A stretch of 64,000 bases of DNA. Source: an uncultured Enterobacteriaceae bacterium. GTDB lineage: Bacteria; Pseudomonadota; Gammaproteobacteria; Ga0077536. The position numbers were made by a program, and so were the translations under genes. Within the stretch, counting starts at the first letter, position 1. Each line of letters opens with the position of its first letter. The notes beneath the pieces are model-generated. The model was not told the DNA's origin and ran no database searches. It saw only the letters and a program-made list of their open reading frames with translations. The stretch lies in the NCBI GenBank assembly GCA_964523765.1, contig CAZFZX010000004.1, positions 1,394 through 65,393 of the forward strand, read 5' to 3'. Of this stretch, positions 3,553 through 39,036 are shown one piece after another.

Positions 3553-4224
3553 ATGGCAAAATCAGCGACTCGGACGACGACCGCAGCAGTTCTATTCCTC
3601 GTCGCCGTTTCGGCAGCACTCTTTTTCGGTTGGACAAAGAATTCTGACAGAATATCACGCCCGCCTGAGCAAATTGAGGACTATCTGTTCTGGGAACCAA
3701 AGAAATTGTCTGCCTTCAAATTGACGGGTTCCGGAGACCTGATACTTGACCGAAGCCAGATGAAAGGGAAATGGAGTTTCATTTTTTTTGGATATACGCA
3801 TTGCCCGGATGTCTGCCCCGCCACCCTGGCATCGCTGGGAATGACGTTCAAGGTGCTGGAGAAAAGCGACGATGTATCTTCAAGAATTCAAGGGTTCTTC
3901 GTCTCCGTCGATCCCGCGCGCGACGATCCGACATTACTGAAAAACTATGTCGGCCATTTCCACCCGGATTTTACCGGTGTTACGGGCGACGCCGAACAAG
4001 TAACCGCATTCAGCCGGCAAATGGGCGCGCTATACACGATTGATAGGGAAGACGGGACAGATGACTACGACGTAACACACAACTCTTCAATATTCGTCGT
4101 CGACCCGCGCGCCAGACTGTACGCCCGCTTCCCGCCTCCTCATGAACCCGCCAAGATGGCGGATATATTTGTTGCAATCGACGCGTTCTGGCAGGAAGAA
4201 GAAAAACGTCGGGGTTTCTTCTAA
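3553..4224 (+). CDS. SCO1/SenC-family copper chaperone (thioredoxin fold)
   Basis: N-terminal TM anchor, the CxxxC copper motif in FFGYTHCPDVCP, and a downstream conserved His in VTHNSSIFVVD. Confidence 0.85.
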   Translation: MAKSATRTTTAAVLFLVAVSAALFFGWTKNSDRISRPPEQIEDYLFWEPKKLSAFKLTGSGDLILDRSQMKGKWSFIFFGYTHCPDVCPATLASLGMTFKVLEKSDDVSSRIQGFFVSVDPARDDPTLLKNYVGHFHPDFTGVTGDAEQVTAFSRQMGALYTIDREDGTDDYDVTHNSSIFVVDPRARLYARFPPPHEPAKMADIFVAIDAFWQEEEKRRGFF

Positions 4225-4431: not shown

Positions 4432-4962
4432 TCATGGACCGCCGGCGCCCTCGTATTGACACTTGCAGAGATCGTTTCTGATATATTGAACGAGGTTTCG
4501 TATCGCCTCGTCGTCGAAAGTTTCACCCCAGTCGGGCATCAATTCCGATAACCCCACGCTTTTTCCGCCTTTCTTTATGACGTCAAAGAGGAATGCGTCG
4601 GTCCGTACCGAGAGCAGACTCGGATCGGCGAGGCTCCGGGGCTTGATGTCTCCCCCGAGGCTGTCGGCCAGCGGGCCGTCACCCCCGCCCGTCGCGCCAT
4701 GACAGGCTAGGCAATTACCCATGTAATTGCCTGCCCCCGACTGCATACCTCCGCTCCACGCTTCCTGGCTTACCGAGTAGGTATCCATGTCCTCAGCCAC
4801 CGCGCCTGTTCCGGCCGACAGCTGGCCCGCGACCACCAGCAACGTTACGAGTATCGTCCGGGCGATCGGGCTACGGCGAACACGGGAAGCGCTCGATGCC
4901 AAGGAGTCAGCTGCACGCGGTGCTTGTACGATTTCACTTGCAGCAATAACGACCGTTTTCAT
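4432..4962 (-). CDS. Class I c-type cytochrome (mono-haem), secreted or membrane-anchored
   Basis: CLACHG haem-binding motif and a distal LMPDWG Met-ligand motif, with a hydrophobic leader. Start set at the ATG at 4962, preceded by GGAGAA. The ORF is open to 5007 (TTG). Confidence 0.8.
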   Translation of the reverse strand: MKTVVIAASEIVQAPRAADSLASSASRVRRSPIARTILVTLLVVAGQLSAGTGAVAEDMDTYSVSQEAWSGGMQSGAGNYMGNCLACHGATGGGDGPLADSLGGDIKPRSLADPSLLSVRTDAFLFDVIKKGGKSVGLSELMPDWGETFDDEAIRNLVQYIRNDLCKCQYEGAGGP

Positions 4963-5095
4963 ATCCGAATTCTCCGATTTCTGTTCTGCGCCCAATCGTG
5001 TCTCCAAAGTACCGGTAGCCCGCGGTACGCCCCCTCGTGAGAAACGCGCGCCCGGAGTCCAAACTTCGGCAGATTCTACCGCAGCGACGACACCT

Positions 5096-6715
5096 TTATC
5101 TTGTCCGTCTGAAAACCATCCCGACGCCGGCCACGATCACTAGCGACGGCATTACCACGACCGACAACCAGAATACGAGCCGTCCCTGCGCCGCCGTCAT
5201 CATTATGGGTGTCAATCCACGCTCTTTTGTTCTTATGGATATCAGCATATTCACGTCCGCCAACCAATTGACCATGTTTAGGAAAAAGTCCTTGTTCCCA
5301 GCCAGTTTTATGTGTGTGTTACTGGCAAAATCGGAATCTCCGGTCACGATGAGTTTTCCCCACTTGGTCGTTTGGCTGCTTTTGTCGCCGCCGGCATCCC
5401 CGTCCGATGTGACTACTTCCACCGCGGCGACGGCCGCGATGCTGATAGGTCCGCGGCGATGTCTGTTCGGGTCGAATTTGAGATTCTCTTCGTCGAGCGC
5501 GCCGGTGATCGTCCAACTGTTAGCGCTTGTCTTGGCGAGACTATAGTTTCCTCTAGCCGGGTCCTCGTCTATCTCCACCGAACGGGCAGCGGGAAAGAAA
5601 GTGGCCAGCTCAAACTCTCGAGTGATCGGGTGTCTGCTTTCGTATTCAACCACGACCGGCGTGAGGTAGTTGGCGCCGTAAACCTGGCTGAGTTTATCGA
5701 TCACGATATCTTCGCTTACCTCGAAACCGAAACCGCTCAAGTATCCAGAGAGGTCGGCGCCGCTACCCGGATCCAGCATGAACAGCGCCCGGCCGCCCCC
5801 GGCGACATATTCCGTGATCTTGTCCAGCTCGACCGGTAACAGCGCGCTCTCCGGGCCGCCGATCACCAAGACGGCGGCGTCCTCGGGGACCTTATCAACG
5901 GCCATCAACAGTAACTCGCTTACCTCGTGGTTTTCCTTCTCTATCGCTTCGCGTGCGACCCCGTAACCATCGGCCTGCATGCTGTCGATACGCTTCTCGC
6001 CATGCCCTTTGACGAAGTAAATGGTTTTCTGTCTGTCGCTGAGAAGCTTGATCAGCGCACTGGATAAACGGCTCTCAGACTCGGTGCCGATGACCTGTTG
6101 CTTGTCACCGTACCTTATCAGGGTCGTGCGGTAGGAAGTTACTCCGAATTTTACGGCTTCGGCGGGACTCTTGTCCGGGTCCACGAAGCGGAATTTGAAC
6201 CTTGTCGAATAGTAGGAATATTCCTTCAACAAATCGTGCATAGCCTGACGCGTGCGTTCGTCGCTTCGGTAGAACGCGATCGCCTCCACGTCGTCCGGCA
6301 AAGAGTTCAGGATCCGGATAGTCTGGGCCGAGAGCGTGTATCTTTGATCCGCAGTCAAATCGATCCTTACTTTGTATCTAACGGACATGATACCGACCAG
6401 GCTCACGATAATGACGAAAACCACGGCCATGATCGTCGTGTTCAGGGCGTACTTCGTCGAGCGCTTCGAAACGAAATGGCGGATTTCGCCGAAGCGAACG
6501 TAGGCGAACAAAAGAAGCAGAAGCAGCCCGATCCAGATCAAGGCCATCGGTAATGCGCCCAACTCGCCCGTTACCGCGTAGACGATGCCCCCCGCCACGA
6601 TTAGAGCCGGGGCGAGAAGACCCAGCAACGTGAAGCCCCCCTTACCTTCCGTTACCGCCACCTCTTGGACTCCAGGCTCCGCAAAGTAAGAAACAAAAAC
6701 AACATGACAAAGCAA
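5096..6715 (-). CDS. GldG-like ABC-transporter auxiliary protein (ABC_transp_aux family)
   Basis: 539-aa ORF with N-terminal TM helices, a large extracytoplasmic domain and a C-terminal TM helix. It directly follows the ABC-2 permease. An alternative GTG start at 6661 overlaps the permease stop. Confidence 0.7.
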   Translation of the reverse strand: MLCHVVFVSYFAEPGVQEVAVTEGKGGFTLLGLLAPALIVAGGIVYAVTGELGALPMALIWIGLLLLLLFAYVRFGEIRHFVSKRSTKYALNTTIMAVVFVIIVSLVGIMSVRYKVRIDLTADQRYTLSAQTIRILNSLPDDVEAIAFYRSDERTRQAMHDLLKEYSYYSTRFKFRFVDPDKSPAEAVKFGVTSYRTTLIRYGDKQQVIGTESESRLSSALIKLLSDRQKTIYFVKGHGEKRIDSMQADGYGVAREAIEKENHEVSELLLMAVDKVPEDAAVLVIGGPESALLPVELDKITEYVAGGGRALFMLDPGSGADLSGYLSGFGFEVSEDIVIDKLSQVYGANYLTPVVVEYESRHPITREFELATFFPAARSVEIDEDPARGNYSLAKTSANSWTITGALDEENLKFDPNRHRRGPISIAAVAAVEVVTSDGDAGGDKSSQTTKWGKLIVTGDSDFASNTHIKLAGNKDFFLNMVNWLADVNMLISIRTKERGLTPIMMTAAQGRLVFWLSVVVMPSLVIVAGVGMVFRRTR

Positions 6716-7434
6716 AAGTAGAAGATCACGTCCTCCGTATCGACGACTCCCTTCGCCAGACTCGCGATATGCTCGTTAATCGAGAGATACGAAAGAACCC
6801 GGCCAAAACCCGCAGAGACGAAAGCTACCGAATAACTCATCAGCCAGAAGAAGAAAAGCATGCCGAAAGACAGCGATGCGGAAATTATCTGATTTTCGCT
6901 CAGCGACGATGTAAATATGCCCAAAGAGATGAACGCGGCTCCCAGCAAAATGAGACCACAATATCCCGTAATGATAGGAATGACTTCCGGCTCGCCCAGG
7001 AAGATCAGGAGGATCGGATACGTAGCCGTCAGCAGAATCATGGTGAGGAAAACAACGAAACAAGCCAGGAACTTCCCGGCGACCACATCGATATCACTTA
7101 CCGGATAGGTCAGGAGCAATTCGATCGTACCGGTCTTCTTCTCCTCGGAGAAAAGTCGCATCGTCAGGAGAGGCGTCATTAACAGCATAATGATGCTGAT
7201 ATTACCGATCAATGGTCTTACTACGGTTTCGTTGACGTTCAAAAGCTGATATTGCTTCGCTAACATTGGATTCGTTTGTGCTTGAAAGCTTACAACCGAG
7301 AACGTCGCGAGAAGATTGTAAAAAAAGTAGCCGGTATTCAACAAAAATGTCGTGATCACGACATAGGCGATCAGGGAACTAAAATACGAGTTCGATTCTT
7401 TGCGGAAAATGAGGCCGACACTTCTGATGTTCAT
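6652..7434 (-). CDS. ABC-2 type permease (NosY/GldF class)
   Basis: 260-aa polytopic membrane protein. The N-terminus IFRKESNSYFSSLIAYVV is typical of NosY/GldF-type permeases. There is a 4-nt overlap with the ATPase gene. Confidence 0.8.
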   Translation of the reverse strand: MNIRSVGLIFRKESNSYFSSLIAYVVITTFLLNTGYFFYNLLATFSVVSFQAQTNPMLAKQYQLLNVNETVVRPLIGNISIIMLLMTPLLTMRLFSEEKKTGTIELLLTYPVSDIDVVAGKFLACFVVFLTMILLTATYPILLIFLGEPEVIPIITGYCGLILLGAAFISLGIFTSSLSENQIISASLSFGMLFFFWLMSYSVAFVSAGFGRVLSYLSINEHIASLAKGVVDTEDVIFYFCFVMLFLFLTLRSLESKRWR

Positions 7435-8366
7435 GCCTCTTCCTTCGTTACGAGTTTGATGAAAATATCTTCGAGCGTCACTCCGATCGGACGCATTTCC
7501 ACCAAGTCCCAGTCGTGATGCACAACCATTGCCTGGATATCTTTCCTCACAGGTTGTGCGTCGTCGAATTCGACAACAAATCCGTTGGCCTCTTCGACGC
7601 CGCCCTGCTCTCGGTCGACGCTCGTTACACCATCCAACGTCCTGAGTTCACGCTCCACCTCATCGGCGGCGCCCGCTACGCGCAAGAACAGTCTCGGGGA
7701 GTTCGCGGACGCCAGCTTATCGGGCTCGTCCACGGCCACGAGTTTTCCTTGGTTAATAATCGCCACCCTGCCGCATAGCAGCGTGACTTCCGGAAGAATG
7801 TGCGTGCTCAAAATAACGGTATGCTTGCCGGCCAATTCCTTGATGAGTTTTCTGATCTCCCGGATTTGCTTCGGATCGAGCCCAACGGTGGGTTCATCGA
7901 GAATCAAAACTTCCGGATCATTCACGACGGCCTGGGCGAGACCCACGCGTTGACGATAGCCTCTTGACAGCGTTCCGACGAGCCTGTCGGATACCTCCGC
8001 GAGGTCGAAATCATCGGTCACGCGGGCCACACAACGACCGACTTCGCCGGACCGCACCCCTTTCATGCCCGATACGAAAGCAAGATAGTCGCGCACCTTC
8101 ATATCGTCATACAGCGGGACGCGCTCAGGCAAGTAACCGATCTTTTGGCGTACCTTCAGGGAATCCTCGAAACAATCAAAGCCTGCTACGAGCGCCCGGC
8201 CTTTGGTCGGCGGGAAAAAGCAGGTCAAGATCCGCATCATCGTGGTTTTTCCGGCACCATTCGGGCCCAGCAGGCCCAGAATCTCGCCCTTTTCGACGCG
8301 GAAACTGACGTCGTCAATAGCCCGGTGCGGACCGTAGTCCTTCGTCAGGTTTTCAACTTCGATCAC
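7431..8366 (-). CDS. ABC transporter ATP-binding protein (NosF/GldA class)
   Basis: Walker A GPNGAGKTT, signature LSRGYRQRV, Walker B LILDEPTVGLD. Confidence 0.9.
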   Translation of the reverse strand: MIEVENLTKDYGPHRAIDDVSFRVEKGEILGLLGPNGAGKTTMMRILTCFFPPTKGRALVAGFDCFEDSLKVRQKIGYLPERVPLYDDMKVRDYLAFVSGMKGVRSGEVGRCVARVTDDFDLAEVSDRLVGTLSRGYRQRVGLAQAVVNDPEVLILDEPTVGLDPKQIREIRKLIKELAGKHTVILSTHILPEVTLLCGRVAIINQGKLVAVDEPDKLASANSPRLFLRVAGAADEVERELRTLDGVTSVDREQGGVEEANGFVVEFDDAQPVRKDIQAMVVHHDWDLVEMRPIGVTLEDIFIKLVTKEEA

Positions 8367-8893
8367 TGGGTGACTCTACCGAAGGACTGTATCTCTTTAT
8401 AAGAGCCTGGTGCTGTGTCACCACTTAAGGCCGTCTCTATCGGCCGGTTTCCCACTTCGGTTGCCGCCAGTTCGAGCAGTGCCCGGTCATCGCCAAGCAA
8501 CTGCTCTATGTCCTGTCGCCTCCAGTCGCCTTCCCAGTTCCCTACGAGCGCATTCCAAACCTGCGCAATCGCGACTAGCTCCGCATCGGTAAACGGTTTG
8601 ACTTTCTGTCCGGCGAGATTACTCAGCTCCACATATTTTCTCATCGCGTGTACGACGACAACGAAGGGCGGACCACAACGAGAACAGTACTGCAGCATCT
8701 TCTCGGCATTATGACAGGTCGTGCATCTACTATAGGCCAGCGCCGTTGCTTCCTCGGCCGTATAGCGCAGATATCCTCTGGCTTTAGCCTCGCTGACGAC
8801 GCTCGCATTCAGGGGGTTAGGTATGAGTAGTATACCGACCAGCGCGGCGCCGATGAGGCCCACGACACCGGTCAGCCACCAGTGCATTTTCAT
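8363..8893 (-). CDS. Membrane-anchored protein with one CXXCH haem motif plus a CXXC motif
   Basis: N-terminal TM helix (WWLTGVVGLIGAALVGILLI), then CTTCHN followed 9 residues later by CSRCGPP. The stop overlaps the ABC ATPase start by 4 nt. Confidence 0.6.
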   Translation of the reverse strand: MKMHWWLTGVVGLIGAALVGILLIPNPLNASVVSEAKARGYLRYTAEEATALAYSRCTTCHNAEKMLQYCSRCGPPFVVVVHAMRKYVELSNLAGQKVKPFTDAELVAIAQVWNALVGNWEGDWRRQDIEQLLGDDRALLELAATEVGNRPIETALSGDTAPGSYKEIQSFGRVTQ

Positions 8894-9119: not shown

Positions 9120-10055
9120 TCAATAACCGCTTTTCACCTTCTTGGAAACGTCGCCGGGAGCCTTCCTCAGCCCACCTTCCACGAATCCGCCTCCTTCGAT
9201 AGAACCGCGTCCGGCCAGATCCGTCTCCAAGAGTTCCTGCTCGTCCTTGAAGTCTTCGCTCGTGCCCGCGTTGAGCGGAGTCACATCGCCCTCGAGCGGC
9301 TTGAAGGTCGATTTGGGATTCAAATACTCCTCGAGGGTCTTGGGTGGTCCGACATCGGCCATCGCCCTGATCCAGGCGACGACATTCCAGATGTCCTGAT
9401 CCTGAAGAAAGTTACCCCATGCCGGCATCGACGACGACAGTGATACGGCTTCGCCGCCCCCTTTGATGACCGTAAACAACTCGAGGTTCGTCTTCTTGTT
9501 CATGTAGTCGCCTTTGGTCAATATTCTCGGCGCCGGATCCAACACATAGGCGCTAGGTCCGTTCCCCTGGAGCGTCCAACCGTGGCAGGTAATACAGTAG
9601 ACGTAATACCATTGTTTCCCCTCATTCGGATCGGCGCCCGCTACCAGCGTCTCGTCGAATTTGGGCGACCAATTGTGAGTCCATTGATTGTAGATCCCTT
9701 CGCCGTCCGCGGCATTGTTTACTCGGTCCCAAAGCTCCGTCCTGCCCCTTGATCCCGCATAACCGCTTTCGCCCTCGTTAAGGGTAGTCTTCTCCGTCCT
9801 TTTGCCTACACCCGTCAGGTAGTCAAACGGCTGAATGCCATAGGTACTGCCGGACTTACCGGCCGCCATGTCCGTAGCCTCGTTTTCATAGGCTTCGGCC
9901 GCCTTCAACAGAGCCTCCTCGGATTGAACCGGGCACTCTACCTTTTTGCCCTGTACCCGACACCTTTTTTCAGCGGCCACGGCAGAAGAGTTCGCACATA
10001 CAGCGAATACACTTACCACTGCGACCATGTATACCCTAAGCTTGGTACTCTTCAT
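9120..10055 (-). CDS. c-type cytochrome with a long N-terminal extension
   Basis: Signal peptide. CITCHG and a distal SMPAWG motif. The haem domain is paralogous to 4432-4962. Confidence 0.75.
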   Translation of the reverse strand: MKSTKLRVYMVAVVSVFAVCANSSAVAAEKRCRVQGKKVECPVQSEEALLKAAEAYENEATDMAAGKSGSTYGIQPFDYLTGVGKRTEKTTLNEGESGYAGSRGRTELWDRVNNAADGEGIYNQWTHNWSPKFDETLVAGADPNEGKQWYYVYCITCHGWTLQGNGPSAYVLDPAPRILTKGDYMNKKTNLELFTVIKGGGEAVSLSSSMPAWGNFLQDQDIWNVVAWIRAMADVGPPKTLEEYLNPKSTFKPLEGDVTPLNAGTSEDFKDEQELLETDLAGRGSIEGGGFVEGGLRKAPGDVSKKVKSGY

Positions 10056-10084: not shown

Positions 10085-11074
10085 TCATTGCGGCCACAAC
10101 TTCGACACCGCACTTCCATCCACTTTGAATAAAGCATTCTTCTTGATATCAGAAAACCAGATGTCCCCGGTGGGATCGACGCCGATATCCTTGGGTCGAC
10201 TGTCGCCCAACGCGGCGGTGACTTCCAGGAACTCTCCACTAGCGGGATCGAACGCCCCGATCTTTCCGATACGGCGGAGCGTGAAAAATATTTTTCCGTC
10301 TTCCTCGGCGGTCAAGCTATCGATCACGCCGCTATTGGGGACGGAAAAGGACTCGAACCGTTTGGCTTCCGGGTCAAACGAAGTCAACGCCCGGCCTTTA
10401 CGCCCGGCAAACCAAAGCACGCCCGAAGAGTCGATAGCGAGATCGACCGGCGCTTCGAAGGGTTCCGGCATCTCGTATTCGTGCATCGACCCGTCCTTCG
10501 CGTCCAACCGACCGAGTTTGTTGCCTTCGGTCTCGACGAACCAAACACGTCCTTTTGCGTCGGTAGCGATCCCGGCCGGGCGGCTGGCCGGCGTCAGGAT
10601 CGGATATTCGCTGAAAGTTTCTAGCTTCGGATCGAACACCCCGACCTTGTTGCCATAGAATTCCGTAAACCAGACGTTGCCGTCCGCGCCCTTCGTGATC
10701 CGGTAAGGCGAGCTCTCGATCGTAGGAATATCGTATTCTCGGAACGATTGGGTGGCCGGATCGAAAACGCCGATCTGATTTGCATCTTGTTGGGTATACC
10801 AAACGTTCCCCGCATCATCGACCACCACGTCCGAGGGGAAACTCCCGTGGGTCGGAATATCGTACTCGGAGAACGTCTCCTGGTCCGGCTGAAAACGCCC
10901 GAGTTTGTTCGTGTTCGCCTCGACGAACCAGACGGCGCCCGCCTTGTCCAGGTCGATCCTAACGGGTACCGCAAACGCGGTAGGTACTTCGAAAGAGCGA
11001 AACGGCGTAGTCGCCCATGACGCCGAAACAGGCGCGAAAGAGAAAAAAATCGCGATAATGGCAATTCTATACAC
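10085..11074 (-). CDS. Vgb-type (streptogramin-lyase-like, COG4257-like) beta-propeller repeat protein, secreted
   Basis: Signal peptide. Reiterated blades such as DAGNVWYTQQDANQIGVFDPATQSFREYDIPT and GADGNVWFTEFYGNKVGVFDPKLETFSEYPI. Confidence 0.75.
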   Translation of the reverse strand: MYRIAIIAIFFSFAPVSASWATTPFRSFEVPTAFAVPVRIDLDKAGAVWFVEANTNKLGRFQPDQETFSEYDIPTHGSFPSDVVVDDAGNVWYTQQDANQIGVFDPATQSFREYDIPTIESSPYRITKGADGNVWFTEFYGNKVGVFDPKLETFSEYPILTPASRPAGIATDAKGRVWFVETEGNKLGRLDAKDGSMHEYEMPEPFEAPVDLAIDSSGVLWFAGRKGRALTSFDPEAKRFESFSVPNSGVIDSLTAEEDGKIFFTLRRIGKIGAFDPASGEFLEVTAALGDSRPKDIGVDPTGDIWFSDIKKNALFKVDGSAVSKLWPQ

Positions 11075-11095: not shown

Positions 11096-12310
11096 TCACG
11101 TTGATCCCCCGACGTACCGCCGCGCCCGACCGGCTAGCACGGCGAGGGCACCGATCAAAACGAACGCCCCTATCCACGCCAACAGTTTCTGCGACCCGAC
11201 GTCCTCCCGCAGTACTTCTTTAGCGACATCTCCTTGCATTTCCGCATCCCGTCGAGTGGCCGAATACGCCAGTGCCCGATCGATCGACAGCCTACCCAAG
11301 CGTTTCGCCTCCGTGCTCCCTTCACTGAACCAGAGCACCGAACGCTCATGATCGATCGCCAAGGCTCCCGGCAGGCTATTGAAACTGGGGATGTCGACTT
11401 CGTGAAACACTGCCGTTCGCGGATTGAAAACACCGATCTTGTTCGCGCGATATTCAAGGAACCAGATATTCCCCGCGGCATCGGCAACAATCGCGTTCGG
11501 GGAACTTCTCTTAGTGGGAATCAACGCTTCGTCGAAACGTAACCAATCGGGATAAAACACCGCGATACGGTTCGCTTGCATTTCGACAAACCAAACCCGG
11601 CCGTCTTTATCGACGGTGATTGCACCTGGATTCGCGAACGCGGTCGGCACCTCGTACTCGTCAAAATGTTGCCGTTCGGGAACGAATCTGCCGATCTTGT
11701 TTACGTTGGCCTCGGCGAACCAGATATGGCCTTTGTGGTCGACCGCCAAATGCCTCGGGTAAGCGTTAGTGGTCGGAACCGGATACCCCTTGACGGAGAA
11801 ATCCGTCGGGTCCACCCGATAGAGGTTGTTCTTATTGGAAGCCGTAAACCAGATGGCGCCACCGTCGTCGACGAGCAGTTCTTCGGGGATCGATTCGATA
11901 GAAAGAACGTAGCGGGCAAATGATCCGTCGACGGGAGAAAATTTTCCTAATGCATAAGACTCATCAGCGTTCTCTGCCCACCTGTTTACTGTGAACCAGA
12001 TCTCGCCATCGGGACTCAGCGCAATCCTCGAGAATCCGACATCGCCCCACGAAGCAGGCAGCGAATAGCTCGAAAACTTCTCGGTTGCGGGGTCATAAAC
12101 TGCCAGAGTCCGGCCAACCTTCTCGGCAAACCAGAGCCGTCCCGCGGAGTCAACGACAATCGACTGCGCGGAACTCAGCGCGTCGGGCAATGGCACTTCT
12201 TCGATCGGATTTTCCGACGCTGCGGGGACACCTCCGCACAACATCAGGGCCGACCCGAACGCCACCGCTCGAAGCGGTTTGTTTGGTTCTTTCGCGGTTG
12301 CGATGTTCAT
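11096..12310 (-). CDS. Vgb-type beta-propeller repeat protein with a C-terminal TM anchor
   Basis: Same blade motif (GRLWFAEKVGRTLAVYDP..., GHIWFAEANVNKIGRFVPE...). C-terminal hydrophobic helix LLAWIGAFVLIGALAVLAG. Start placed at the ATG at 12310 to avoid overlapping the upstream gene. The ORF is open to 12373. Confidence 0.7.
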   Translation of the reverse strand: MNIATAKEPNKPLRAVAFGSALMLCGGVPAASENPIEEVPLPDALSSAQSIVVDSAGRLWFAEKVGRTLAVYDPATEKFSSYSLPASWGDVGFSRIALSPDGEIWFTVNRWAENADESYALGKFSPVDGSFARYVLSIESIPEELLVDDGGAIWFTASNKNNLYRVDPTDFSVKGYPVPTTNAYPRHLAVDHKGHIWFAEANVNKIGRFVPERQHFDEYEVPTAFANPGAITVDKDGRVWFVEMQANRIAVFYPDWLRFDEALIPTKRSSPNAIVADAAGNIWFLEYRANKIGVFNPRTAVFHEVDIPSFNSLPGALAIDHERSVLWFSEGSTEAKRLGRLSIDRALAYSATRRDAEMQGDVAKEVLREDVGSQKLLAWIGAFVLIGALAVLAGRARRYVGGST

Positions 12311-12330
12311 GGCTACTAAATTTCTACGCG

Positions 12331-13026
12331 CTACCAGGTCATGGTCGGCTCGTAAAAATGCCGCAATTGCCAATTTGCATCTTTATAAGACGCGCCAATA
12401 TGGTTCGCATCGCCGATACGATACCTGCCCACCGCTATCTGTCGCGCTCGTTCCGTCTTATAAAACTCGATCATACTCGCTGGCGGTAACGCCTGCCTCA
12501 CACCCATCATCGGGTTGTGGCAGGAAGTGCAACCGGTGGTCTTGGCCGGATGGCCGGCCTTCACCACGCCGGCGAGGGCGCCTATCCAAAACGCGCACAG
12601 AATCAGCGCTGAGACGATCTTACTGGACGTCGCCATCTTTGCTGGTGATGCCTTGCGTCTTTTGAAGATGAGCGGTACCGATAACAGAAAAACGAGTACG
12701 AGCGACGGCAACCAGAACGTTCCGATGGACAACCACTTGGCCGCCTCTCCGGTCAAATACCAAAACGGCTGGAAAATAAAAAAGAGATACCACTCCGGTG
12801 CCGGAATATTCGCTCCTTCGTCGGGGAGCGGCGGCATATTGGAATCCATGGGCACCTGCAAGTAATAGGCCAGTACCAACGGCACCAACAACACGATCAG
12901 CAAAAGGAGCCCGGCCGTTAACGCGTGTTTCGGCCAAAATGGGTGAAACGATTGCGGATACGGCGGCGCATATTTCGGCGCCCGTACGATCTCCCGGTCC
13001 TTGTTACCCATGATCAACTCAACCAC
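12331..13026 (-). CDS. Cytochrome b C-terminal part (subunit IV-like) fused to a c-type haem domain (QcrC-like)
   Basis: PEWYLFFIFQPFWYL motif of cytochrome b/subunit IV, then a TM helix and CTSCHN near the C-terminus. Confidence 0.8.
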   Translation of the reverse strand: MVELIMGNKDREIVRAPKYAPPYPQSFHPFWPKHALTAGLLLLIVLLVPLVLAYYLQVPMDSNMPPLPDEGANIPAPEWYLFFIFQPFWYLTGEAAKWLSIGTFWLPSLVLVFLLSVPLIFKRRKASPAKMATSSKIVSALILCAFWIGALAGVVKAGHPAKTTGCTSCHNPMMGVRQALPPASMIEFYKTERARQIAVGRYRIGDANHIGASYKDANWQLRHFYEPTMTW

Positions 13027-13032
13027 CGGCGC

Positions 13033-13650
13033 TCACAGCGGCCCGGAGATCCCGTGACGCCGCACCATTCGGAAATGGAAATACAACAGCGCCGCCAGAA
13101 CGAGCGGGATCGCGAGGATATGCGTGTAATAAGCCGTTTTCAGGCTGAACGCATCGAGTAGAAGGTCCTTGAAGGGCGCCCCGACGACGCCCCATGTTCC
13201 GATGTAGTCCATCCATATCGCGAACGACCAATAGGCGCGCCAATCCCACGGCAGCAGGATCCCGCTCGCAACGAGGAGAAAAACCATCAACAGCTGAGCA
13301 ACCCCGGACACCCAGGTCAACTCCCGCGGACTCTGATAGGCCTTGTAATAGAACACGATAACCATGTGGGAAAACACCATCGCGAGAAGAAGCGTCGAAC
13401 CCCAACGGTGCACGTTCCTGAACAGCCATCCGAAAGCAATTTCATTACTCATCTGCTCGATACTGTACAAAGCCTTATCCGGCTCGGGTGTATAAAAAAA
13501 AAGCATGAACACACCCGTGACTACCTGAAGGCCGATGAGCGCAAACGACAGTCCTCCGAAACAGTAGAAGAAGTTCACGTGGGACGGGACGGCCTGCCCT
13601 TTCTTGAGCCTGATCCGCTCTTTAACCCGCGTTGCGAGGCCCGCAGTCAT
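13033..13650 (-). CDS. Cytochrome b6-like di-haem cytochrome b (N-terminal four-helix part, QcrB-like)
   Basis: His pairs with haem-b spacing: H-x13-H in NVHRWGSTLLLAMVFSH and H-x14-H in THILAIPLVLAALLYFH. Confidence 0.85.
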   Translation of the reverse strand: MTAGLATRVKERIRLKKGQAVPSHVNFFYCFGGLSFALIGLQVVTGVFMLFFYTPEPDKALYSIEQMSNEIAFGWLFRNVHRWGSTLLLAMVFSHMVIVFYYKAYQSPRELTWVSGVAQLLMVFLLVASGILLPWDWRAYWSFAIWMDYIGTWGVVGAPFKDLLLDAFSLKTAYYTHILAIPLVLAALLYFHFRMVRRHGISGPL

Positions 13651-14192
13651 CGTTTCGCCTCACCCAGCCCAACTTCCAGCATCCCCGGCGCCCCTTCCTT
13701 CGCCAGCGTCAGCGCTGCTTCCTTGTCCATGCCGTAGGTCTCGCCGGTAAAGTCGATTCTCCAGGCCAGCACATCCTCATCGACGTTGAGCGGGATCCGT
13801 TCGCGCACCTTATACGCCTCGTCGAACAACGACGGCATCTGATAACTGATATCGACGAGCGCATGTGTCCCATTGATCTCCACCTTGCCGACGTCCACGG
13901 CCAACCCGGGCGGGTATTTCTTGATGACCTCCAGGAACGCCTCGACCGACAGCCGCGATCGCTCGGAGCCTATCAGTTTATAGGCGAGCCGCGCAGAACT
14001 GCTTCCCCCTTCCTTCGTCGCCTCTGTTATATGCTCGTAGAACCGCTTGACGACGACGGCTGGTCCTTCTTCGGGATTGAGGCCTACACTTTGCCGATCA
14101 CACCCCGCGACGGACAAGCCGATGACCAAAAAAGGTGCGAGCCACCCCGCCCACGCGAGAGGGGTGGCATAACGATAGTCGGAAACCCCCAT
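13647..14192 (-). CDS. Lipoprotein of unknown function
   Basis: Lipobox LSVAGC. No Cys or Met-rich metal motif. It is wedged between the nosZ-like and cytochrome b genes, 4-nt overlap downstream and a 10-nt gap upstream. Confidence 0.55.
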   Translation of the reverse strand: MGVSDYRYATPLAWAGWLAPFLVIGLSVAGCDRQSVGLNPEEGPAVVVKRFYEHITEATKEGGSSSARLAYKLIGSERSRLSVEAFLEVIKKYPPGLAVDVGKVEINGTHALVDISYQMPSLFDEAYKVRERIPLNVDEDVLAWRIDFTGETYGMDKEAALTLAKEGAPGMLEVGLGEAKR

Positions 14193-14202: not shown

Positions 14203-15963
14203 CTAAAAACCTTTCACTTCTTCGGCGATCGTAAGCTGACCTTCTTCCACCAAGCCGGGCAGAGTCTGGGCTTCGGCATAATCGCCTATCGCCAGATTCG
14301 AACTGTCCCCGGCCGGATCGTCGACAAAGAACGACCCTCTCATCTCAAGGTGTAAGGGTCCACAGAAATGTTGACAGAAAATCGCGTACTCGCCGGCAAT
14401 ATCGGCCACGAACTCGGTCACTGCGGTGACCCCGCGAGGGGCGCTCATGTTCGTTCGCAATCCGTAGGGTCCGTAGATCGTGAATCCCATGGTGACGTCC
14501 GGATTCTTGGTGATGCCCGCAGCTTTGTCGATATTGGTCACGAAGAGCCGGACCTTATCACCCTTGTTGACCCGGATCTGCCGAGGGATATAACCATAGC
14601 TGAAGGCCTTGACGTGGATCTCCTTGACCCCGTCGACCGTTCTGATCCCCGGCTTCTCATTGGACTTGGGCATAAAGTATCTTTTCGACTTCGCCCTGTG
14701 CGCGGGATCGATCATCGGCGTCGAACCCGTGATCAGACCGCCCGAGGTCGCCGTGCCCATGTTCCAACGCTCGACCTGATAGGCCCAGATATTCTTCGCG
14801 TTGTGGGGCTCGCCATCCACCGGAATGATCTTCAAGGTCTTGCCATAGGTCGGGCTCTTTTCACGCGCGTCCCATAACTCGAAATTGACCGGATAGACGA
14901 TGCCGGTGGGGCTGAACAGACCGGTCGAGAACTTGTTCAGCGCGATGACATAAGCATTGTCGTTGCTGATCGAGATGTGCCCTGTTCTGTAATGTGTCGG
15001 GATCTCGTCGACGACTTCCAATTTCTTCAGATCCACCTTGACGTTGGCGTCGGCGACAAAACAGCTCTCGTAGGCATACTTCGAAGTCAACCCTTCGGTG
15101 CTGTCCTTCCCCGGTTCATAGACTCCGCCGTCCTTGTCGTAGACGTCCATCACCGAATGCAGCGGGCCGGCACAGGTCGGAAGCACCTTTTTCACCGCCA
15201 GTTTGTCCACATCGATAATGGTCATGGTCGCCGACAATTTGTCACTCACGAGCGCCAGCGTGCCCTCCGGAATGACGTCCACGCCGTGGGGATTCTTGCC
15301 GACCGGGATCTCTTTCAGGAATTTAAACGGATTGGCGGAAAAAACACCCACCGTGGAGTGATAATAATTACCCGCGAACACATACTTCCCTTTTCTACCG
15401 GCGTCGATGTAATCGGGTGCGCTCGGCGCGGGGCCCCAATCGATGATTTGCGTTTTGCCGGTCGCGATTTCCGTCTTCGACATCTTCCCGGTGTATTCAC
15501 CGGTGCCGAAGAGATATTTTCCATCCGTACTCAAGGCGATGTGATGGACGCCAAACGGGAACGGCAATGCAATCAACCGCTCGAGAAAACCGGTTTGCAG
15601 ATTGATCTCGCCGACGGTGTTCGCCCCCTTGTCGTTGACATAGAGGTACTTGCCGTCCGGGGTACCGTTCTTGTTCCCGTGATTGGTACCGCCGTACACG
15701 ACCTCGTGCAGATCGACACCGACATCGATGTGCCGGTATGTGCGCATACTCGGCAACCCGATGACCGCGACCTTGCCGTCCAGTCCGCCGGCGTTATACA
15801 TGATCATCGGATCATGCAGCACCGAATCCGCTGGCTCTTGTTCGGCATGCTGCCATTGCGGAATGGTCTCCTCCGCGCCAGCCGCCAGACTCAGCGACAG
15901 AGACACCAGCAAAACCCCGAAAAGAAGATTTCTCATCGGAAAGACGTGTTTCATGTCATGCAT
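14203..15963 (-). CDS. nosZ: Divergent nitrous-oxide-reductase (NosZ) homologue: beta-propeller plus C-terminal CuA cupredoxin, Sec-type leader
   Basis: GGLDGKVAVIGLPSMR, DGKYLYVNDKGANT, KNPHG, GPLHS, HYRTGHISIS, ALNKFS and GEPHN line up with NosZ propeller blocks. C-terminal CuA motif CQHFCGPLHLEM. No twin-arginine. Start at the ATG at 15963, 7 nt after GGAGGT. The ORF is open to a GTG at 15978. Confidence 0.8.
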   Translation of the reverse strand: MHDMKHVFPMRNLLFGVLLVSLSLSLAAGAEETIPQWQHAEQEPADSVLHDPMIMYNAGGLDGKVAVIGLPSMRTYRHIDVGVDLHEVVYGGTNHGNKNGTPDGKYLYVNDKGANTVGEINLQTGFLERLIALPFPFGVHHIALSTDGKYLFGTGEYTGKMSKTEIATGKTQIIDWGPAPSAPDYIDAGRKGKYVFAGNYYHSTVGVFSANPFKFLKEIPVGKNPHGVDVIPEGTLALVSDKLSATMTIIDVDKLAVKKVLPTCAGPLHSVMDVYDKDGGVYEPGKDSTEGLTSKYAYESCFVADANVKVDLKKLEVVDEIPTHYRTGHISISNDNAYVIALNKFSTGLFSPTGIVYPVNFELWDAREKSPTYGKTLKIIPVDGEPHNAKNIWAYQVERWNMGTATSGGLITGSTPMIDPAHRAKSKRYFMPKSNEKPGIRTVDGVKEIHVKAFSYGYIPRQIRVNKGDKVRLFVTNIDKAAGITKNPDVTMGFTIYGPYGLRTNMSAPRGVTAVTEFVADIAGEYAIFCQHFCGPLHLEMRGSFFVDDPAGDSSNLAIGDYAEAQTLPGLVEEGQLTIAEEVKGF

Positions 15964-16270
15964 CTTCATTACCTCCACACACCCCGGTCATACAGAAACC
16001 ACTACCGACCCGTTCAATGTTGCCACGACAACACAAAGGTCAAGGCAGAAGCCATAAATCATTCGTAGCCGCCGTTCGAAGCTCGCGGGCCCTTCAGCGG
16101 ATCAACGTCGGCGGGAGCCAGTCTTACCCACCTGTTTCCGCCTCCGTTCACACAACAGCCCGGGCACGGCGCCGGCGGTCGACACCAGCGCCCTGGTAGC
16201 CGACGACAGCCGCCACAATTCCCGCCCCGTCTGGACACGCACCAATGTCTCTTTTGTGAGTTTTAAAACC

Positions 16271-16284
16271 TTGACCTAGGTCAA
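16271..16284. promoter_or_regulatory. Crp/Fnr-family (FNR/ANR/DNR-type) binding-site candidate upstream of the nosZ-like operon
   Basis: Perfect 14-bp palindrome TTGAC-CTAG-GTCAA, about 310 bp upstream of the 15963 start. A weak -10 (GACATT, minus strand, 16249-16244) lies at class-II spacing. Confidence 0.5.
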
Positions 16285-19654: not shown

Positions 19655-20695
19655 CTATCGGTAGCCACCATAATTTTCTGCGGCCCGGACCATGGCCCGG
19701 ATGTTGACGATGGGCGCCTCCGGCGGGATCTCGCAGCCACTACTCAGAATGAACCCGCCACCCGCTCCGGCCTGTGCGATACACCGTTCGGCGGCTTCGT
19801 CGACGGCCTCCGGTGTCCCGGTGAATATCGGATCTGAGGGATCGATATTCCCCTGCAGACACACGCGGTGCCCGACTTGTTCCTTAGCGTCGGCGAGATC
19901 AACGGGATGGTCGACCTCGAGGATTTGGGCGCCCGTGTCGCACATCGATTCGAGGATCGGTGTCGTCTGACCACAGACATGCAGGGAAACCACGGCGCCC
20001 GCCTCGCGGGCAGCGCCGAAGACTTTCTTGATACCGGGAGCCGCGAAAGTATTGAACGACTGCGGACTAATCAGATTGGGGCTCGCCGTAGGGTCGCTGA
20101 CGACCACCACATCGATACCCGCTTCGACGTTTGCCCGGGCATAGCGAACCGCAGCCGCTGTCGTAATTTCGGTAAGATTATGGATGAATTCCGGATCTTT
20201 AAGCGTGCTTTTCAGTAACTTGTTGATGTCGCATAGTTGACCAGCGAGAGTGAACGGGCCGGGAACATAGGAGAACAACGGGACCCGATCGCCCACCTCT
20301 CGTTTGACGATCTCCAGGGTCTCCATGTGGATCGGCAATCTGCCGGTAACAAGAGGATCGGGGATCGACAATTTCTCCAGATCGTCGCCGCTCCGGATGA
20401 TCCGCTCCATCACCTGCGGAACGTCACCCTCCGGATAGCGCATGGCGCAACCCATCGCCTCGGCGAGCAGATTGAAAGACGATTCCCAACCGACGTAGAT
20501 CGCGTCATACCCCAATTCCCGCCATCCGGACAAAAGCGCATCGGCTGTTTTTTCGGGACTGTGCAGGGCCTCGACCAGCCCGACGCCCGTAATCTGCGCC
20601 GTCGTATAGGTGATTTGCGGTACGACCGGCACGCGATCCGGAATTTCGCCCCGGATCACCGCTGCGAAGCGTTCAAACGATGCCGAGTCGGTCAT
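19655..20695 (-). CDS. Uroporphyrinogen-decarboxylase-family (MtaA/CmuA-like) methyltransferase
   Basis: 346-aa ORF. The N-terminal ERFAAVIRGEIPDRVPVVPQI and overall length and pattern match URO-D/MtaA-type methylcobamide methyltransferases. Confidence 0.75.
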   Translation of the reverse strand: MTDSASFERFAAVIRGEIPDRVPVVPQITYTTAQITGVGLVEALHSPEKTADALLSGWRELGYDAIYVGWESSFNLLAEAMGCAMRYPEGDVPQVMERIIRSGDDLEKLSIPDPLVTGRLPIHMETLEIVKREVGDRVPLFSYVPGPFTLAGQLCDINKLLKSTLKDPEFIHNLTEITTAAAVRYARANVEAGIDVVVVSDPTASPNLISPQSFNTFAAPGIKKVFGAAREAGAVVSLHVCGQTTPILESMCDTGAQILEVDHPVDLADAKEQVGHRVCLQGNIDPSDPIFTGTPEAVDEAAERCIAQAGAGGGFILSSGCEIPPEAPIVNIRAMVRAAENYGGYR

Positions 20696-22461: not shown

Positions 22462-24261
22462 TCAGTGAATACGGCCGGCCCGCCCTTTCGGTCTTTTGCG
22501 CTGTTCCGGTTGTTCGAACAACCCGCTGAGTTCGCTGAGCATCACATCACCCAGTTCGGCGATGTCGGGGATGATTACCGCACGTTCGTAATAACGGGTC
22601 ACGTCGTGACCGATTCCGATCGCGGTCAGTTCGACGGGCGAGCAGGTCTCGATCCAGTCGATGACGTCCCGGAGATGGTTTTCAAGATACATCGTCGGAT
22701 TAGACGATAGCGTAGCGTCGTCCCGCGGCACACCGTCGGAGATCACCATTAAGATCCGGCGCCGCTCGGTCCGCCCGAGCAGCCGATTGTGGGCCCAGAC
22801 TAACGCTTCGCCATCGATATTCTCCTTCAACAACCCGTCAAGCAACATCAGGCCGAGATTACACCGGGCCCGGCGCCAAGGTTGATCGGCGGATTTGTAG
22901 ACGATATGGCGCAGCGCGTTGAGGCGCCCCGGGTTCGCGGGTTCGCCGTCGGCGAGCCACTGCTCGCGCGCACTGCCGCCCTTCCAGGCCCTCGTCGTGA
23001 AACCGAGGATCTCGACCCGAACGCCGCAACGTTCGAGCGTACGCGCCAGAATGTCGGCACTCATTGCCGCCATCGTGATCGGACGCCCGCGCATCGAACC
23101 GGAGTTGTCGATCAGCAGGCTGACCACGGTATCGCGGAAGTCCGTCTCGGCTTCGGCTTTGAAGGAAAGCGGATGCAACGGGTCGATGATAACCCTGCCG
23201 AGACGAGCCGAATCGAGGATCCCCTCGTCCAAATCGAATTCCCAGTGGCGGGTCTGTTTCGCCAGGAGCCGCCTCTGGAGCCGATTCGCGAGCCGGTTCA
23301 CCGTCGTCTGCAGGCGACTCAACCGTCGATCCAGATTACTCCTGAGGCGTAGCAGTTCGGCTGGCGGACACAGGGTCTCGGCGCCCACTTCCTCGTCGTC
23401 TGCGGTGGTATAGGCTTTGTAATCGACCCGCGACACCGAAGACTCGCCGCGTTGCGGAACGCGGACCGGTGGGCCGGCTGGCTCACCCTCGCTTGGCCGC
23501 GGGTTTTCGTCGATGCGGGCCCCGGTTTCGGTTTGTGCGCCAGATTCTTCCGATCGGTCCGCATCTGATCCAGGTTCGTGACTGTCCTGCTCCGGTGTTT
23601 CGGCGCCCGCCTCTTCCTCGGGTCCGGTTTCCGCCCCGGCCAAACCCAGCGATTCGATCATGGCGCTCGCCGTTTCAGCAAACGTCTGCTGATCTGCGAC
23701 GCTGCGATCGAGCCGCTCGAGATAGTTAGCGCCGCGCTCCTCCAACCATGTGCGCCAAAGCGCGGTCACATGGGCAGCCGCGGCGGGAGGCGGTCGCCCG
23801 GTCAGCCGTTCGCGCAGCACCAAGGCCATCGCCTCGGCCGGCGGCGCCGCCTCGCGCGTCTCGAAACGCTCGAATCCCCTGCAACGGGCTTCCAGGCAGG
23901 CCTCCAAGTTGGAAGCGACCCCTGCGAGACCCGGAGACCCGATGGTTTCTACCCGCACCTGCTCAAGGGCCTCGAACGCCGCGGTTGCCTCCCGACCGCG
24001 CGGCCTGAAGCGCCGGTGAATCGTTTCGTCGTGGTGAAGCAATTTGAGCGCCGTACCATCGGCAGTTCCGCGCAAACTGGAAACCTCGGCCGGACTCGCG
24101 GCGGCAGACGGCGCCGGTAACCGGGCGACACCGTCGTTCACGCGGCCTTCGCCGCCGGGCGCAAAGGCAACGACGACGTCCGGACGACCGGCCACGGCCT
24201 TCAACGCCGCTGCCGTTACCCGCTCGATCAACTGGGCCCGGTCCGCTGCGGCTTCGGTCAC
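22462..24261 (-). CDS. cobT: CobT-like cobaltochelatase subunit (VWA domain)
   Basis: 599-aa ORF with an acidic central linker and a C-terminal VWA domain ([14 protein letters not shown]). It overlaps cobS by 4 nt. Confidence 0.75.
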
Positions 24262-25247
24262 ACCGGGGCCTCGCGAATCGCCGAGTCAGACAGTTCCTCG
24301 TCGAAACAGCGTTGATAATATTCAGCGACCACCGGACGTTCCAACTCGTCGCACTTGTTGAGGAAAGTGAGTTCAAAAGCGAAGGCCAAACCATCGAAGA
24401 TCTCGGCGTTCTCGGCCCAGGTAATGATGGTGCGTGGCGACATCACGGTCGAAATGTCACCGCACATGAAGCCGGCGCGCGTGAGGTCGGCCATCTCGAT
24501 CATCGCGTTTACAGTTTCGCGACCTTCCTTTGTGTCGTAAGCGGGCGCCTTGGACAGGACAATGCTGATCTCGTCCTCGCGCGGCAGGTAATTGAGCGTC
24601 GCCACGACGTTCCAACGGTCCATCTGACCCTGGTTGATCTGCTGGGTGCCATGATAGAGCCCGGTTGTATCGCCGAGGCCGATCGTGTTCGTGGTCGAGA
24701 ACAGTCGGAAATAGGGGTGCGGAACCATCACCCTGTTCTGGTCCAGCAGTGTCAACCTGCCCTCCGCCTCCAGGATCCGCTGGATGACGAACATCACGTC
24801 CGGCCGCCCGGCGTCGTACTCATCGAACACCAATGCGGCCGGACGCTGGATCGCCCAGGGCAGCAGGCCTTCTCGGAATTCCGTGATCTGCTTGCCGTCT
24901 TTGATCACGATGGCGTCCTTACCGATGAGGTCGATGCGACTGATGTGGCTGTCCAGATTGACCCGTACGCAGGGCCAATTGAGCCGCGCCGCCACTTGCT
25001 CGATATGAGTCGACTTGCCGGTCCCGTGGTAGCCCTGGATCATCACCCGCCGGTTGTAGGCGAAACCGGACAGAATGGCGAGCGTCGTCACGCGGTCAAA
25101 ATGATAGGCGTCGTCGACGTCGGGAACGTGTTCTTCGCTCGCGCTGAAACCCGGCACTTCCATGTCACTGTCGATCCCGAAGGCCTGGCGGACCGAGACG
25201 GTGAGGTCGGGCGCCGTCAATGGCAGGCCGGTATCGAGGGACGCCAT
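24258..25247 (-). CDS. cobS: CobS-like cobaltochelatase subunit (AAA+ ATPase)
   Basis: Near-colinear with remembered CobS sequence: [59 protein letters not shown]. Confidence 0.85.
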
Positions 25248-29476: not shown

Positions 29477-29597
29477 TCCCCCGCCCCATTTTGTGTTTAG
29501 TGTCGACGACGGCCGCCGCGTTCCCGCGTCAGGACGCGGGCAAACGCTGACTTCATGGGTATCTTCTCTCCGATTACAGGATACTGTCCGCGTTTCG

Positions 29598-29611
29598 TTG
29601 ACCGAAATCAA
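29598..29611. promoter_or_regulatory. FNR-type box in the divergent region between the Mo-oxidoreductase and the RACo/DMSOR operon
   Basis: TTGAC-CGAA-ATCAA, within gTTGACCGAAATCAAc. It differs at one position from the box at 39023-39036. It lies about 103 bp upstream of the ATG at 29708 and 128 bp from the start at 29476. Confidence 0.55.
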
Positions 29612-29707
29612 CTGTGCGCCATCTTGCGGCACCGCGACAAACGCCCTGGACAGGAGCATCGTCGAATGCTTCTATGGTCGGGAATGGGACGATTGCAATC
29701 GTAGCGA

Positions 29708-32316: not shown

Positions 32317-32347
32317 CCTCCGAAATTCGGAAAGAAGGAATTCACGC

Positions 32348-39022: not shown

Positions 39023-39036
39023 TTGATCGAAATCAA
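39023..39036. promoter_or_regulatory. Consensus FNR box upstream of the methyltransferase/corrinoid operon
   Basis: Perfect TTGAT-CGAA-ATCAA within the 16-bp palindrome gTTGATCGAAATCAAc. On the minus strand TATGCT (38999-38994) sits at class-II -10 spacing. The box lies about 140 bp upstream of the ATG at 38890. Confidence 0.6.

Follow-up and report, generated by a model that had tools for sequence, protein, structure and literature searches.

A gene on the minus strand of the 64,000-nucleotide stretch analysed here (the window; contig CAZFZX010000004.1, from an uncultured Enterobacteriaceae bacterium), at positions 14203-15978, probably encodes a Sec-exported, periplasmic nitrous oxide (N2O) reductase (NosZ) of the clade III lactonase type (L-NosZ). 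It belongs to a subclade, here called Met-type, in which a methionine stands at the first histidine position of the copper site CuA and the tuning of that site would be altered. The protein (hereafter the query) is a further member of a known, curated family, and the lineage itself, described in 2025, is not new. The exchange at CuA separates the uncultured Proteobacterial and Nitrospirota majority of clade III from the two clade III enzymes that have been validated; it raises a testable question and does not define a new kind of system. No biological sink for N2O other than NosZ is known, and environmental surveys have begun to count clade III genes as N2O-reduction potential.

Family assignment of the gene product

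He et al. described the lactonase-type clade III family in 2025 (Nature 646:152; doi 10.1038/s41586-025-09401-4). Papers citing it report clade III nosZ from Nitrospirota, Nitrospinota, Desulfobacterota and Pseudomonadota, and describe these genes as lacking the canonical nos accessory genes and as having cytochrome and transporter genes alongside. The open reading frame (ORF) examined here comprises 591 amino acids (aa) and opens at a GTG at 15978. However, a GGAGG sequence (15972-15976) sits 8 nucleotides before an ATG at 15961-15963, and translation from ATG 15963 gives 586 aa, which matches the closest homologues in length; for these two reasons, the real product is probably the 586-aa form. 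The gene and its leader are annotated as follows:

14203-15978, minus strand: L-nosZ, clade III lactonase-type, Met-type subclade, predicted from the ORF, the NCBIfam model NF052460, Pfam, Foldseek and the Shine-Dalgarno sequence
15874-15978, minus strand: putative Sec-type signal peptide, residues 1-35, read from the sequence, with predicted cleavage after AGA35

The NF052460 model, a curated equivalog for "clade III lactonase-type nitrous-oxide reductase (L-NosZ)" with a cut-off of 700 bits, matched the query along its entire length (model positions 1-480 of 480) with 787.7 bits (E 3.3e-237). The clade I and clade II models both scored far lower, TIGR04244 at 125.2 bits and TIGR04246, the second-best NCBIfam match, at 177.7 bits, each against a cut-off of 625. 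Pfam profiles matched both parts of the protein (YNCE 56 bits, Lactonase 31.5, nos_propeller 32.6, and Cupredoxin_1 25.3, just below its cut-off), and HMMER aligned nitrous oxide reductase chains of the PDB with it at E 9e-26. An AlphaFold2 (AF2) model (predicted local distance difference test, pLDDT, 73; predicted template modelling score, pTM, 0.78) shows seven four-stranded blades plus a beta-sandwich, and its best PDB matches in Foldseek were all N2O reductases, covering both domains at E ~5e-29.

These results agree with a first-pass annotation, made from the letters of the window, which had called the protein an atypical N2O-reductase lineage and not a standard clade I enzyme, and had proposed a phylogeny and a comparison with N2O reductase crystal structures as checks. 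Besides the scores (788 bits for L-NosZ versus 125 and 178 for clades I and II) and the structural match, the phylogeny points the same way: in a neighbor-joining tree of clade III plus clade I and II representatives (482 columns, 100 bootstrap replicates), clade III was separated from clades I and II in 100/100 replicates. Within clade III, the Met-type clade, with the query inside it, and a His-type clade were each recovered in 100/100 replicates, and the union of the two in 71/100.

According to the accessible part of a preprint (10.64898/2026.07.10.737647), the L-NosZ motifs attributed to He et al. [quoted passage not shown] The query carries the full set (C535..M546, G143-V-H-H146, P230-H-G232, G271-P-L-H274 and E390-P-H392). 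All the blocks that had led the first-pass annotation to NosZ are present, namely GGLDGKVAVIGLPSMR (residues 64-79), DGKYLYVNDKGANT (108-121), KNPHG (228-232), GPLHS (271-275), HYRTGHISIS (329-338), ALNKFS (346-351), GEPHN (389-393) and CQHFCGPLHLEM (535-546). The Pseudomonas stutzeri strings that it had set beside them are borne out by the PDB sequences in the HMMER alignment, and it was exact in placing H91-E92 at 15703-15708, the codon of M497 at 14488-14490 and the CuA loop at 14341-14376.

A comparison with clade I NosZ of P. stutzeri (PDB 3SBP, 6RL0; variants 7AQ2-7AQ9) shows a matching fold (Foldseek E ~1e-28) and counterparts in the query of H178, H326, H382, H433, H494, K454, C618, C622, H626 and M629. 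The query nevertheless has no twin-arginine translocation (Tat) signal, its leader being hydrophobic, of the Sec type and free of a twin arginine on direct reading, and it is ~50 residues shorter, two traits already remarked on in the first reading of the sequence; with the 125.2 bits noted above, the leader places it outside clade I. It also differs in having a glutamate at the H130 equivalent, an extra histidine after the H178 equivalent, and Met, His and Ala at the positions of H583, W620 and S550, respectively.

A highly divergent yet ordinary clade II (Sec-dependent) NosZ would account for the Sec-type leader, for TIGR04246 being the second-best NCBIfam match and for a cupredoxin half that aligns well with NosZ. 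Clade II NosZ is indeed likewise exported through Sec, has the same overall two-domain fold, and has the CuA loop and five of the seven CuZ histidine motifs in common with the query. However, the TIGR04246 score is only 177.7 bits against 625, the propeller matches the Lactonase and YNCE profiles, and the DxHH motif of clade II is absent, the position reading DLHE in the query, which has DxHE plus GXHH. The query also lacks the ~40-residue insert that clade II NosZ has ahead of the first histidine motif, has no nosB, nosD, nosG, nosH or nosL nearby, and carries Met in place of the clade II histidine at CuA. We consider a clade II identity highly improbable; the model scores, together with the 100/100 split from the clade I and II representatives, rule it out.

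The CuZ site

In P. stutzeri, the CuZ cluster is bound by H129, H130, H178, H326, H382, H433 and H494, and alanine at any one of these positions abolishes activity or nearly so, with ~2% left in H178A (PMC8179356). The second-sphere lysine K454 adjoins the sulfide SZ2 (PMC8179356). We located the counterparts of these residues with a 180-sequence MAFFT alignment of ~170 L-NosZ relatives and nine clade I/II NosZ proteins, as well as in the HMMER alignment:

15703-15714, minus strand: D89-L-H91-E92, counterpart of DxHH (MAFFT); H91 is the predicted CuZ ligand equivalent to H129, with E92 at the H130 position
15541-15552, minus strand: G143-V-H145-H146, GXHH motif; H145 corresponds to P. stutzeri H178 and H146 would be the relocated seventh histidine
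15283-15291, minus strand: P230-H231-G232, PHG motif; H231 corresponds to H326 (HMMER); invariant
15157-15168, minus strand: G271-P-L-H274, GPLH motif; H274 corresponds to H382 (MAFFT); invariant
14977-14979, minus strand: H334 within HYRTGH, corresponding to H433 (HMMER and MAFFT)
14932-14934, minus strand: K349 within ALNKFS, corresponding to P. stutzeri K454 (HMMER); invariant
14803-14811, minus strand: E390-P-H392, EPH motif; H392 corresponds to H494 (HMMER and MAFFT)

In the MAFFT alignment, H231, H274, H334, H392 and K349 align one to one with the canonical histidines and K454. The G-D-x-H-H of canonical NosZ aligns with G-V-D89-L-H91-E92 of the query, upholding the earlier pairing of DxHH with DLHE, and the canonical G-x-H-G aligns with G143-V-H145-H146. 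The query thus has seven invariant histidines, H91, H145, H146, H231, H274, H334 and H392, which, by the strand positions of the AF2 model, open the innermost strands of blades 1, 2, 2, 4, 5, 6 and 7; the GXHH motif lies at the start of innermost strand 144-149, and blade 3 gives no CuZ histidine, the same as in canonical NosZ. As judged from the alignment and the predicted strands, the second CuZ histidine is moved from blade 1 to the neighbouring blade 2 (H146), and the total remains seven because the change from DxHH to DxHE is offset by the GxHH doublet.

The DxHE motif is invariant in all functional-looking L-NosZ sequences aligned, the validated enzymes included, and so is GxHH; the combination is a hallmark of clade III that already lies within the published family definition. 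The altered copper sites proposed in the first-pass annotation are therefore only half borne out: at CuZ the substitution appears to be compensated, with seven histidines kept, while the one at CuA is real and conserved within one subclade, as described below. Two pairwise HMMER placements were set aside in this analysis: a pairing of P. stutzeri H130 with H100, which is Ala in most homologues (MAFFT pairs DxHE with DxHH), and a misplaced alignment of GPLH, for which the MAFFT placement was used.

We also considered whether the query might be a decaying, non-functional relic that is losing its copper ligands, given that two canonical ligand positions are unlike those of clade I and II enzymes. 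However, both differences are invariant across at least 150 sequences from several phyla, and the gene has an uninterrupted ORF, is preceded by a Shine-Dalgarno sequence and belongs to a conserved operon. Truly degenerate relatives do exist in the family and look different: three L-NosZ relatives (P0121, P0128 and P0136) have lost copper ligands and fall below the NF052460 cut-off. A relic is very hard to reconcile with this pattern of conservation, which rules it out.

The degenerate relatives differ among themselves. P0121 (1139 aa, nested in the Met-type clade) is without GXHH, the EPH histidine and the CuA cysteines, and has gained a ~570-aa C-terminal extension; P0128 has lost GXHH and the EPH histidine and kept CuA; and P0136 has lost all CuZ histidines and kept CuA. 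Elsewhere in the propeller, a ~18-residue insertion, DKDGGVYEPGKDSTEGLTS, follows GPLH in the query (residues 279-299, window ~15082-15144). It is present in the aligned proteobacterial Met-type sequences (query, Gallionellales, Rhodospirillales) and absent from the "delta" Met-type, His-type and clade I/II sequences aligned.

A methionine at the CuA site

CuA1 of nitrous oxide reductase is bound by the first histidine and a methionine, and CuA2 by the second histidine and a backbone carbonyl (PMC11573801). Canonical CuA has two His and two Cys as ligands, together with one Met and a backbone carbonyl; the query departs from this set, its first histidine being Met497. Two features cover the site:

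14488-14490, minus strand: M497, Met at the first CuA histidine position (P. stutzeri H583, a CuA1 ligand), from HMMER and MAFFT alignments
14341-14376, minus strand: CuA loop C535-Q-H537-F-C539-G-P-L-H543-L-E-M546, motif CX2FCX3HXEM, from the sequence and the HMMER alignment

Three independent alignments (HMMER, the large MAFFT alignment and a small local-pair alignment) agree in pairing M497 with P. stutzeri H583, and HMMER places it in the very column that is mutated in the PDB H583 variants 7aq2, 7aq6 and 7aq9 (series 7aq2-7aq9). C535, C539, H543 and M546 are canonical, and H537 occupies the position of W620, whose carbonyl should bind CuA2. H537, within CQHFC, might make up for the lost histidine but would not be an obligatory stand-in, since Thr or Gln occurs there in some Met-type sequences.

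The position of Met497 is invariant in ~155 sampled homologues of the MAFFT alignment, and Met is found there in 46/46 related genome loci that cover it. These loci belong to Alpha-, Beta-, Gamma- and Zetaproteobacteria, to Magnetococcales and Nitrospirota, and to "Deltaproteobacteria"/Thermodesulfobacteriota, and almost all of them carry the label of a metagenome-assembled genome (MAG). The copper-ligand columns are invariant in at least 150 sequences of 65-95% identity from several phyla, which points to purifying selection on both copper sites, M497 included. On the evidence of these alignments, the His-to-Met exchange at CuA is genuine and defines the Met-type subclade, and is not family-wide. 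No discussion of such an exchange was found in the accessible literature, which did not cover He et al. 2025 itself.

In P. stutzeri, H583 flips between bound and unbound states, forms hydrogen bonds with S550 and D576, and has been proposed as an electron-transfer gate (PMC11573801, PMC8179356). It is frequently unbound to CuA in the resting enzyme (PMC8179356), suggesting that CuA tolerates the absence of this ligand.

The two subclades and the validated enzymes

The sister subclade (Desulfitobacterium, Sporomusa, Desulfovibrio and Chloroflexi) keeps a histidine at this CuA position. Two clade III N2O reducers are listed in one study of N2O-reducing cultures, Desulfitobacterium nosdiversum Sab5 (in enrichment culture) and Sporomusa acidovorans Mol (PMC13274427), and both are hosts of His-type enzymes, to which the physiological evidence for clade III is confined. 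The corresponding proteins, UniRef100_P0DXY7 (WP_425804335.1) of D. nosdiversum Sab5 and UniRef100_P0DXY8 of S. acidovorans DSM 3132, belong to the clusters of P0123 and P0274 and to the same NF052460 equivalog as the query. They share with it the lactonase-type propeller plus cupredoxin architecture, the DxHE, GXHH, PHG, GPLH, EPH and CX2FCX3HXEM motifs, and the K454-equivalent lysine, and their loci, like that of the query, have adjoining genes for a cytochrome b, an ABC transporter and a periplasmic propeller.

The differences are nonetheless considerable. Identity between the query and the Desulfitobacterium enzyme is only 43%; the first CuA ligand of the query is Met, whereas both validated enzymes have His; residue 537 is His in the query and Tyr in the validated enzymes; the signal is of the signal peptidase I type, whereas the validated enzymes are lipoproteins; and the query is ~40 residues longer at the C-terminus. 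The accessory genes at the query locus comprise an ABC-2/GldG-like/DUF4340 module, Vgb-lyase-like propellers and SCO1, in contrast to the MacB/FtsX transporter, BNR/sortilin propeller and YtkA protein at the validated Bacillota loci.

Among the clade III homologues that were recovered from Proteobacteria and Nitrospirota, almost all were Met-type, and this subclade appears, from the sequences collected, to hold most of the clade III sequences of these two groups in the databases searched. The genome match closest to the query is a Chromatiales MAG, at 83% identity. In accessible sources, functional evidence for the Met-type is limited to transcription: in dysoxic groundwater, the Met-type gene of the Nitrospirota MAG nzgw271 (locus L053) was transcribed alongside nir and nor (PMC11033732).

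Gene neighbourhood and electron supply

L-nosZ heads a gene cluster in which all downstream members lie on the same strand except a divergently oriented SCO1/SenC gene:

13647-14192, minus strand: conserved 181-aa lipoprotein, lipobox SVAGC; no family match; syntenic in at least 20 loci
13033-13650, minus strand: cytochrome b6-like N-terminal half of cytochrome b, 205 aa (Pfam Cytochrome_B, E 1.7e-35); syntenic
12331-13026, minus strand: QcrC-like protein, read from the sequence as a cytochrome b C-terminal (subunit IV) part with PEWY and a fused c-haem site CTSCH
11096-12373, minus strand: periplasmic Vgb-lyase-family beta-propeller 1 with a C-terminal membrane anchor (PF24684, E 1e-46); syntenic
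10085-11074, minus strand: periplasmic Vgb-lyase-family beta-propeller 2 (PF24684, E 3e-83); syntenic
9120-10055, minus strand: 311-aa monohaem cytochrome c (Pfam Cytochrome_CBB3), candidate direct electron donor
8363-8893, minus strand: 176-aa membrane-anchored CxxCH protein, read from the sequence; syntenic, 49-64% identity
7431-8366, minus strand: ABC transporter ATPase, GldA/DrrA-like (family matches, synteny)
6652-7434, minus strand: ABC-2 permease, GldF-like (family matches, synteny)
5096-6715, minus strand: ABC_transp_aux (GldG-like) accessory protein (family match, synteny)
4432-5007, minus strand: 191-aa cytochrome c (family scan)
3553-4224, plus strand: SCO1/SenC copper chaperone with a CPDVCP motif (PF02630, E 2e-36); adjoins L-nosZ in many relatives
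2383-3345, minus strand: DUF4340 protein, fourth member of the ABC-2 module (family scan, synteny)

Synteny of the 12-gene neighbourhood extends across Alpha- and Gammaproteobacteria, Magnetococcales, Nitrospirota and a "delta" MAG, with the gene order also found in Halieaceae and Rhodospirillales. Gallionellales, Zetaproteobacteria and Burkholderiales have the gene for the 311-aa cytochrome c immediately after L-nosZ, and the remaining genes close by. A homologue of this cytochrome c (53-74% identity) occurs within about 10 kb of L-nosZ in 40/51 Met-type loci tabulated, and the QcrC-like protein matches the Cytochrom_B_C protein of locus L005 (BLASTP, E 2e-14). His-type loci carry a cytochrome b, a MacB/FtsX-type ABC transporter, a BNR/sortilin-like propeller, a YtkA protein and small cytochromes, such that in both subclades the reductase is accompanied by a cytochrome b on the quinol side, by an ABC transporter and by a propeller protein of the periplasm. 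We infer that the transporter and propeller are reminiscent of NosFY and NosD, built of unrelated parts.

Several of these loci show peculiarities of their own. The split cytochrome b of the query locus (12331-13650) has no Rieske gene in the cluster, and a Cys-poor lipoprotein (13647-14192) stands at the place of QcrA. In three Gallionellales loci (L001, L002 and L026), L-nosZ lies beside a gene for a 613-aa cytochrome bd-I-like protein and several c-type cytochromes, together with an EB_dh-domain protein and radical-SAM/PCP_red genes, and the cytochrome b/ABC module does not adjoin it.

FNR-type boxes upstream of L-nosZ

A potential binding site for an anaerobic regulator lies upstream of the gene:

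16271-16284, no strand assigned: TTGACCTAGGTCAA, an FNR/Dnr-type perfect palindrome (sequence motif), ~293 bp upstream of the ORF start

A TTGAN-N4-NTCAA box occurs within 500 bp upstream of L-nosZ in 30/47 related loci (L003-L050), where ~2 would be expected from a background of 0.047 per 500 bp. This enrichment points to FNR/Dnr-type control of L-nosZ, as for denitrification genes.

Elsewhere in the window, a perfect FNR consensus, TTGATCGAAATCAA, is found at 39023-39036, ~133 bp upstream of a URO-D-family gene (37811-38890, minus strand), and suggests a second, potentially anaerobically controlled unit there.

Is the Met-type protein an N2O reductase?

Since the Met-type differs from both validated Bacillota enzymes at a CuA ligand, its function is assigned by homology, and the main alternative is that the query is a NosZ-derived Met-type copper enzyme that is no longer, or no longer mainly, an N2O reductase, and might act on another small oxidant or in electron transfer. 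Such a change of function would be in line with the loss, across the subclade, of the gating CuA histidine that both validated enzymes keep (M497 in the query), with a neighbourhood and accessory machinery unlike those of the validated Bacillota loci, with the lower NF052460 scores of Met-type proteins (690-788 bits, compared with 854-914 for His-type proteins), and with the repeated loss of CuZ ligands in the family (P0121, P0128 and P0136). However, all seven CuZ histidines and the K454-equivalent lysine are strictly conserved, the upstream region has FNR-type boxes of the kind usual in denitrification promoters, in situ co-transcription with nir and nor is on record for a Met-type gene (PMC11033732), and H583 of P. 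stutzeri is often off CuA, which can thus do without it (PMC8179356). A functional reductase is favoured because H583 is so often unbound and because both copper sites appear to be under strict purifying selection, and we regard the change of function as unlikely.

Several observations weigh against the assignment as an N2O reductase and should be set beside this balance. The residue at the H583 position matters in another respect: turnover in the P. stutzeri enzyme reportedly occurs only with a protonatable residue there (His, Asp or Glu), as Zhang et al. are said to have found (JACS, 2021), and methionine is not protonatable. If so, the Met-type either works without the histidine gate or is no N2O reductase. 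In addition, pLDDT in the AF2 model drops below 50 precisely at the loops around CuA (residues 486-494 and 538-545); the two validated enzymes of clade III are lipoproteins of the His-type with an accessory cluster unlike that of the query; and no cultured Met-type host was found in the data searched, where nearly all related genome records are MAGs. A search for nosD, nosF, nosY, nosL and nosR among the window ORFs scanned found none, and it is the absence of nosD, nosL and nosR that counts here. No nir, nor or canonical nos genes were seen among the ORFs scanned.

On the assignment as an N2O reductase, the enzyme would form a head-to-tail dimer in the periplasm, the usual arrangement of nitrous oxide reductases, in which N2O would bind at the CuZ site in the hub of one subunit and receive electrons from the CuA site of its partner (N2O + 2e- + 2H+ -> N2 + H2O). 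Because Met497 replaces the first CuA histidine, CuA1 would be held by sulfur ligands only (two bridging Cys, Met497 and Met546), and the site would operate without the flipping, protonatable histidine proposed as a gate in P. stutzeri. Electrons would probably pass from quinol through the Rieske-less split cytochrome b (the b6-like half plus the PEWY/haem-c fusion) to the 311-aa cytochrome c and on to CuA. Copper for maturation would probably be delivered by SCO1, with the ABC-2 transporter (ATPase, permease, GldG-like protein and DUF4340 protein) and the two Vgb-lyase-like propellers probably replacing NosDFY and NosL, and expression would probably be turned on by an FNR/Dnr-type regulator at low oxygen or with NO.

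Taken together, a sulfur-only CuA1, the lack of a histidine gate and maturation by ABC-2, propeller and SCO1 components raise the tentative possibility, less likely in our view than not, that the Met-type is a mechanistically distinct N2O reductase. Were Met-type enzymes to differ in redox potential, gating or substrate, metagenomic estimates of N2O sinks that count Met-type genes would need revision. In the window, the Met-type L-nosZ operon is complete and conserved, and comes with putative genes for electron transfer and maturation and with an FNR-type site.

Other genes in the window

N2O inactivates cob(I)alamin, and a link between L-nosZ and corrinoid or URO-D genes is conceivable for that reason. 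In two Desulfitobacterium-type loci, L055 (3658-6948) and L057 (3834-7110), genes for a corrinoid protein, a URO-D-family methyltransferase and a RACo activase lie just upstream of L-nosZ, and the window holds two URO-D-family genes and cobS/cobT within ~25 kb (19655-20695, 22462-25247 and 37811-38890). The window also holds several molybdopterin oxidoreductases (27347-36300 and 57336-60092), one of them an ethylbenzene-dehydrogenase-type operon in gamma-beta-alpha order (31678-36300, plus strand), and a CoxL/CoxM-like pair (42488-46299).

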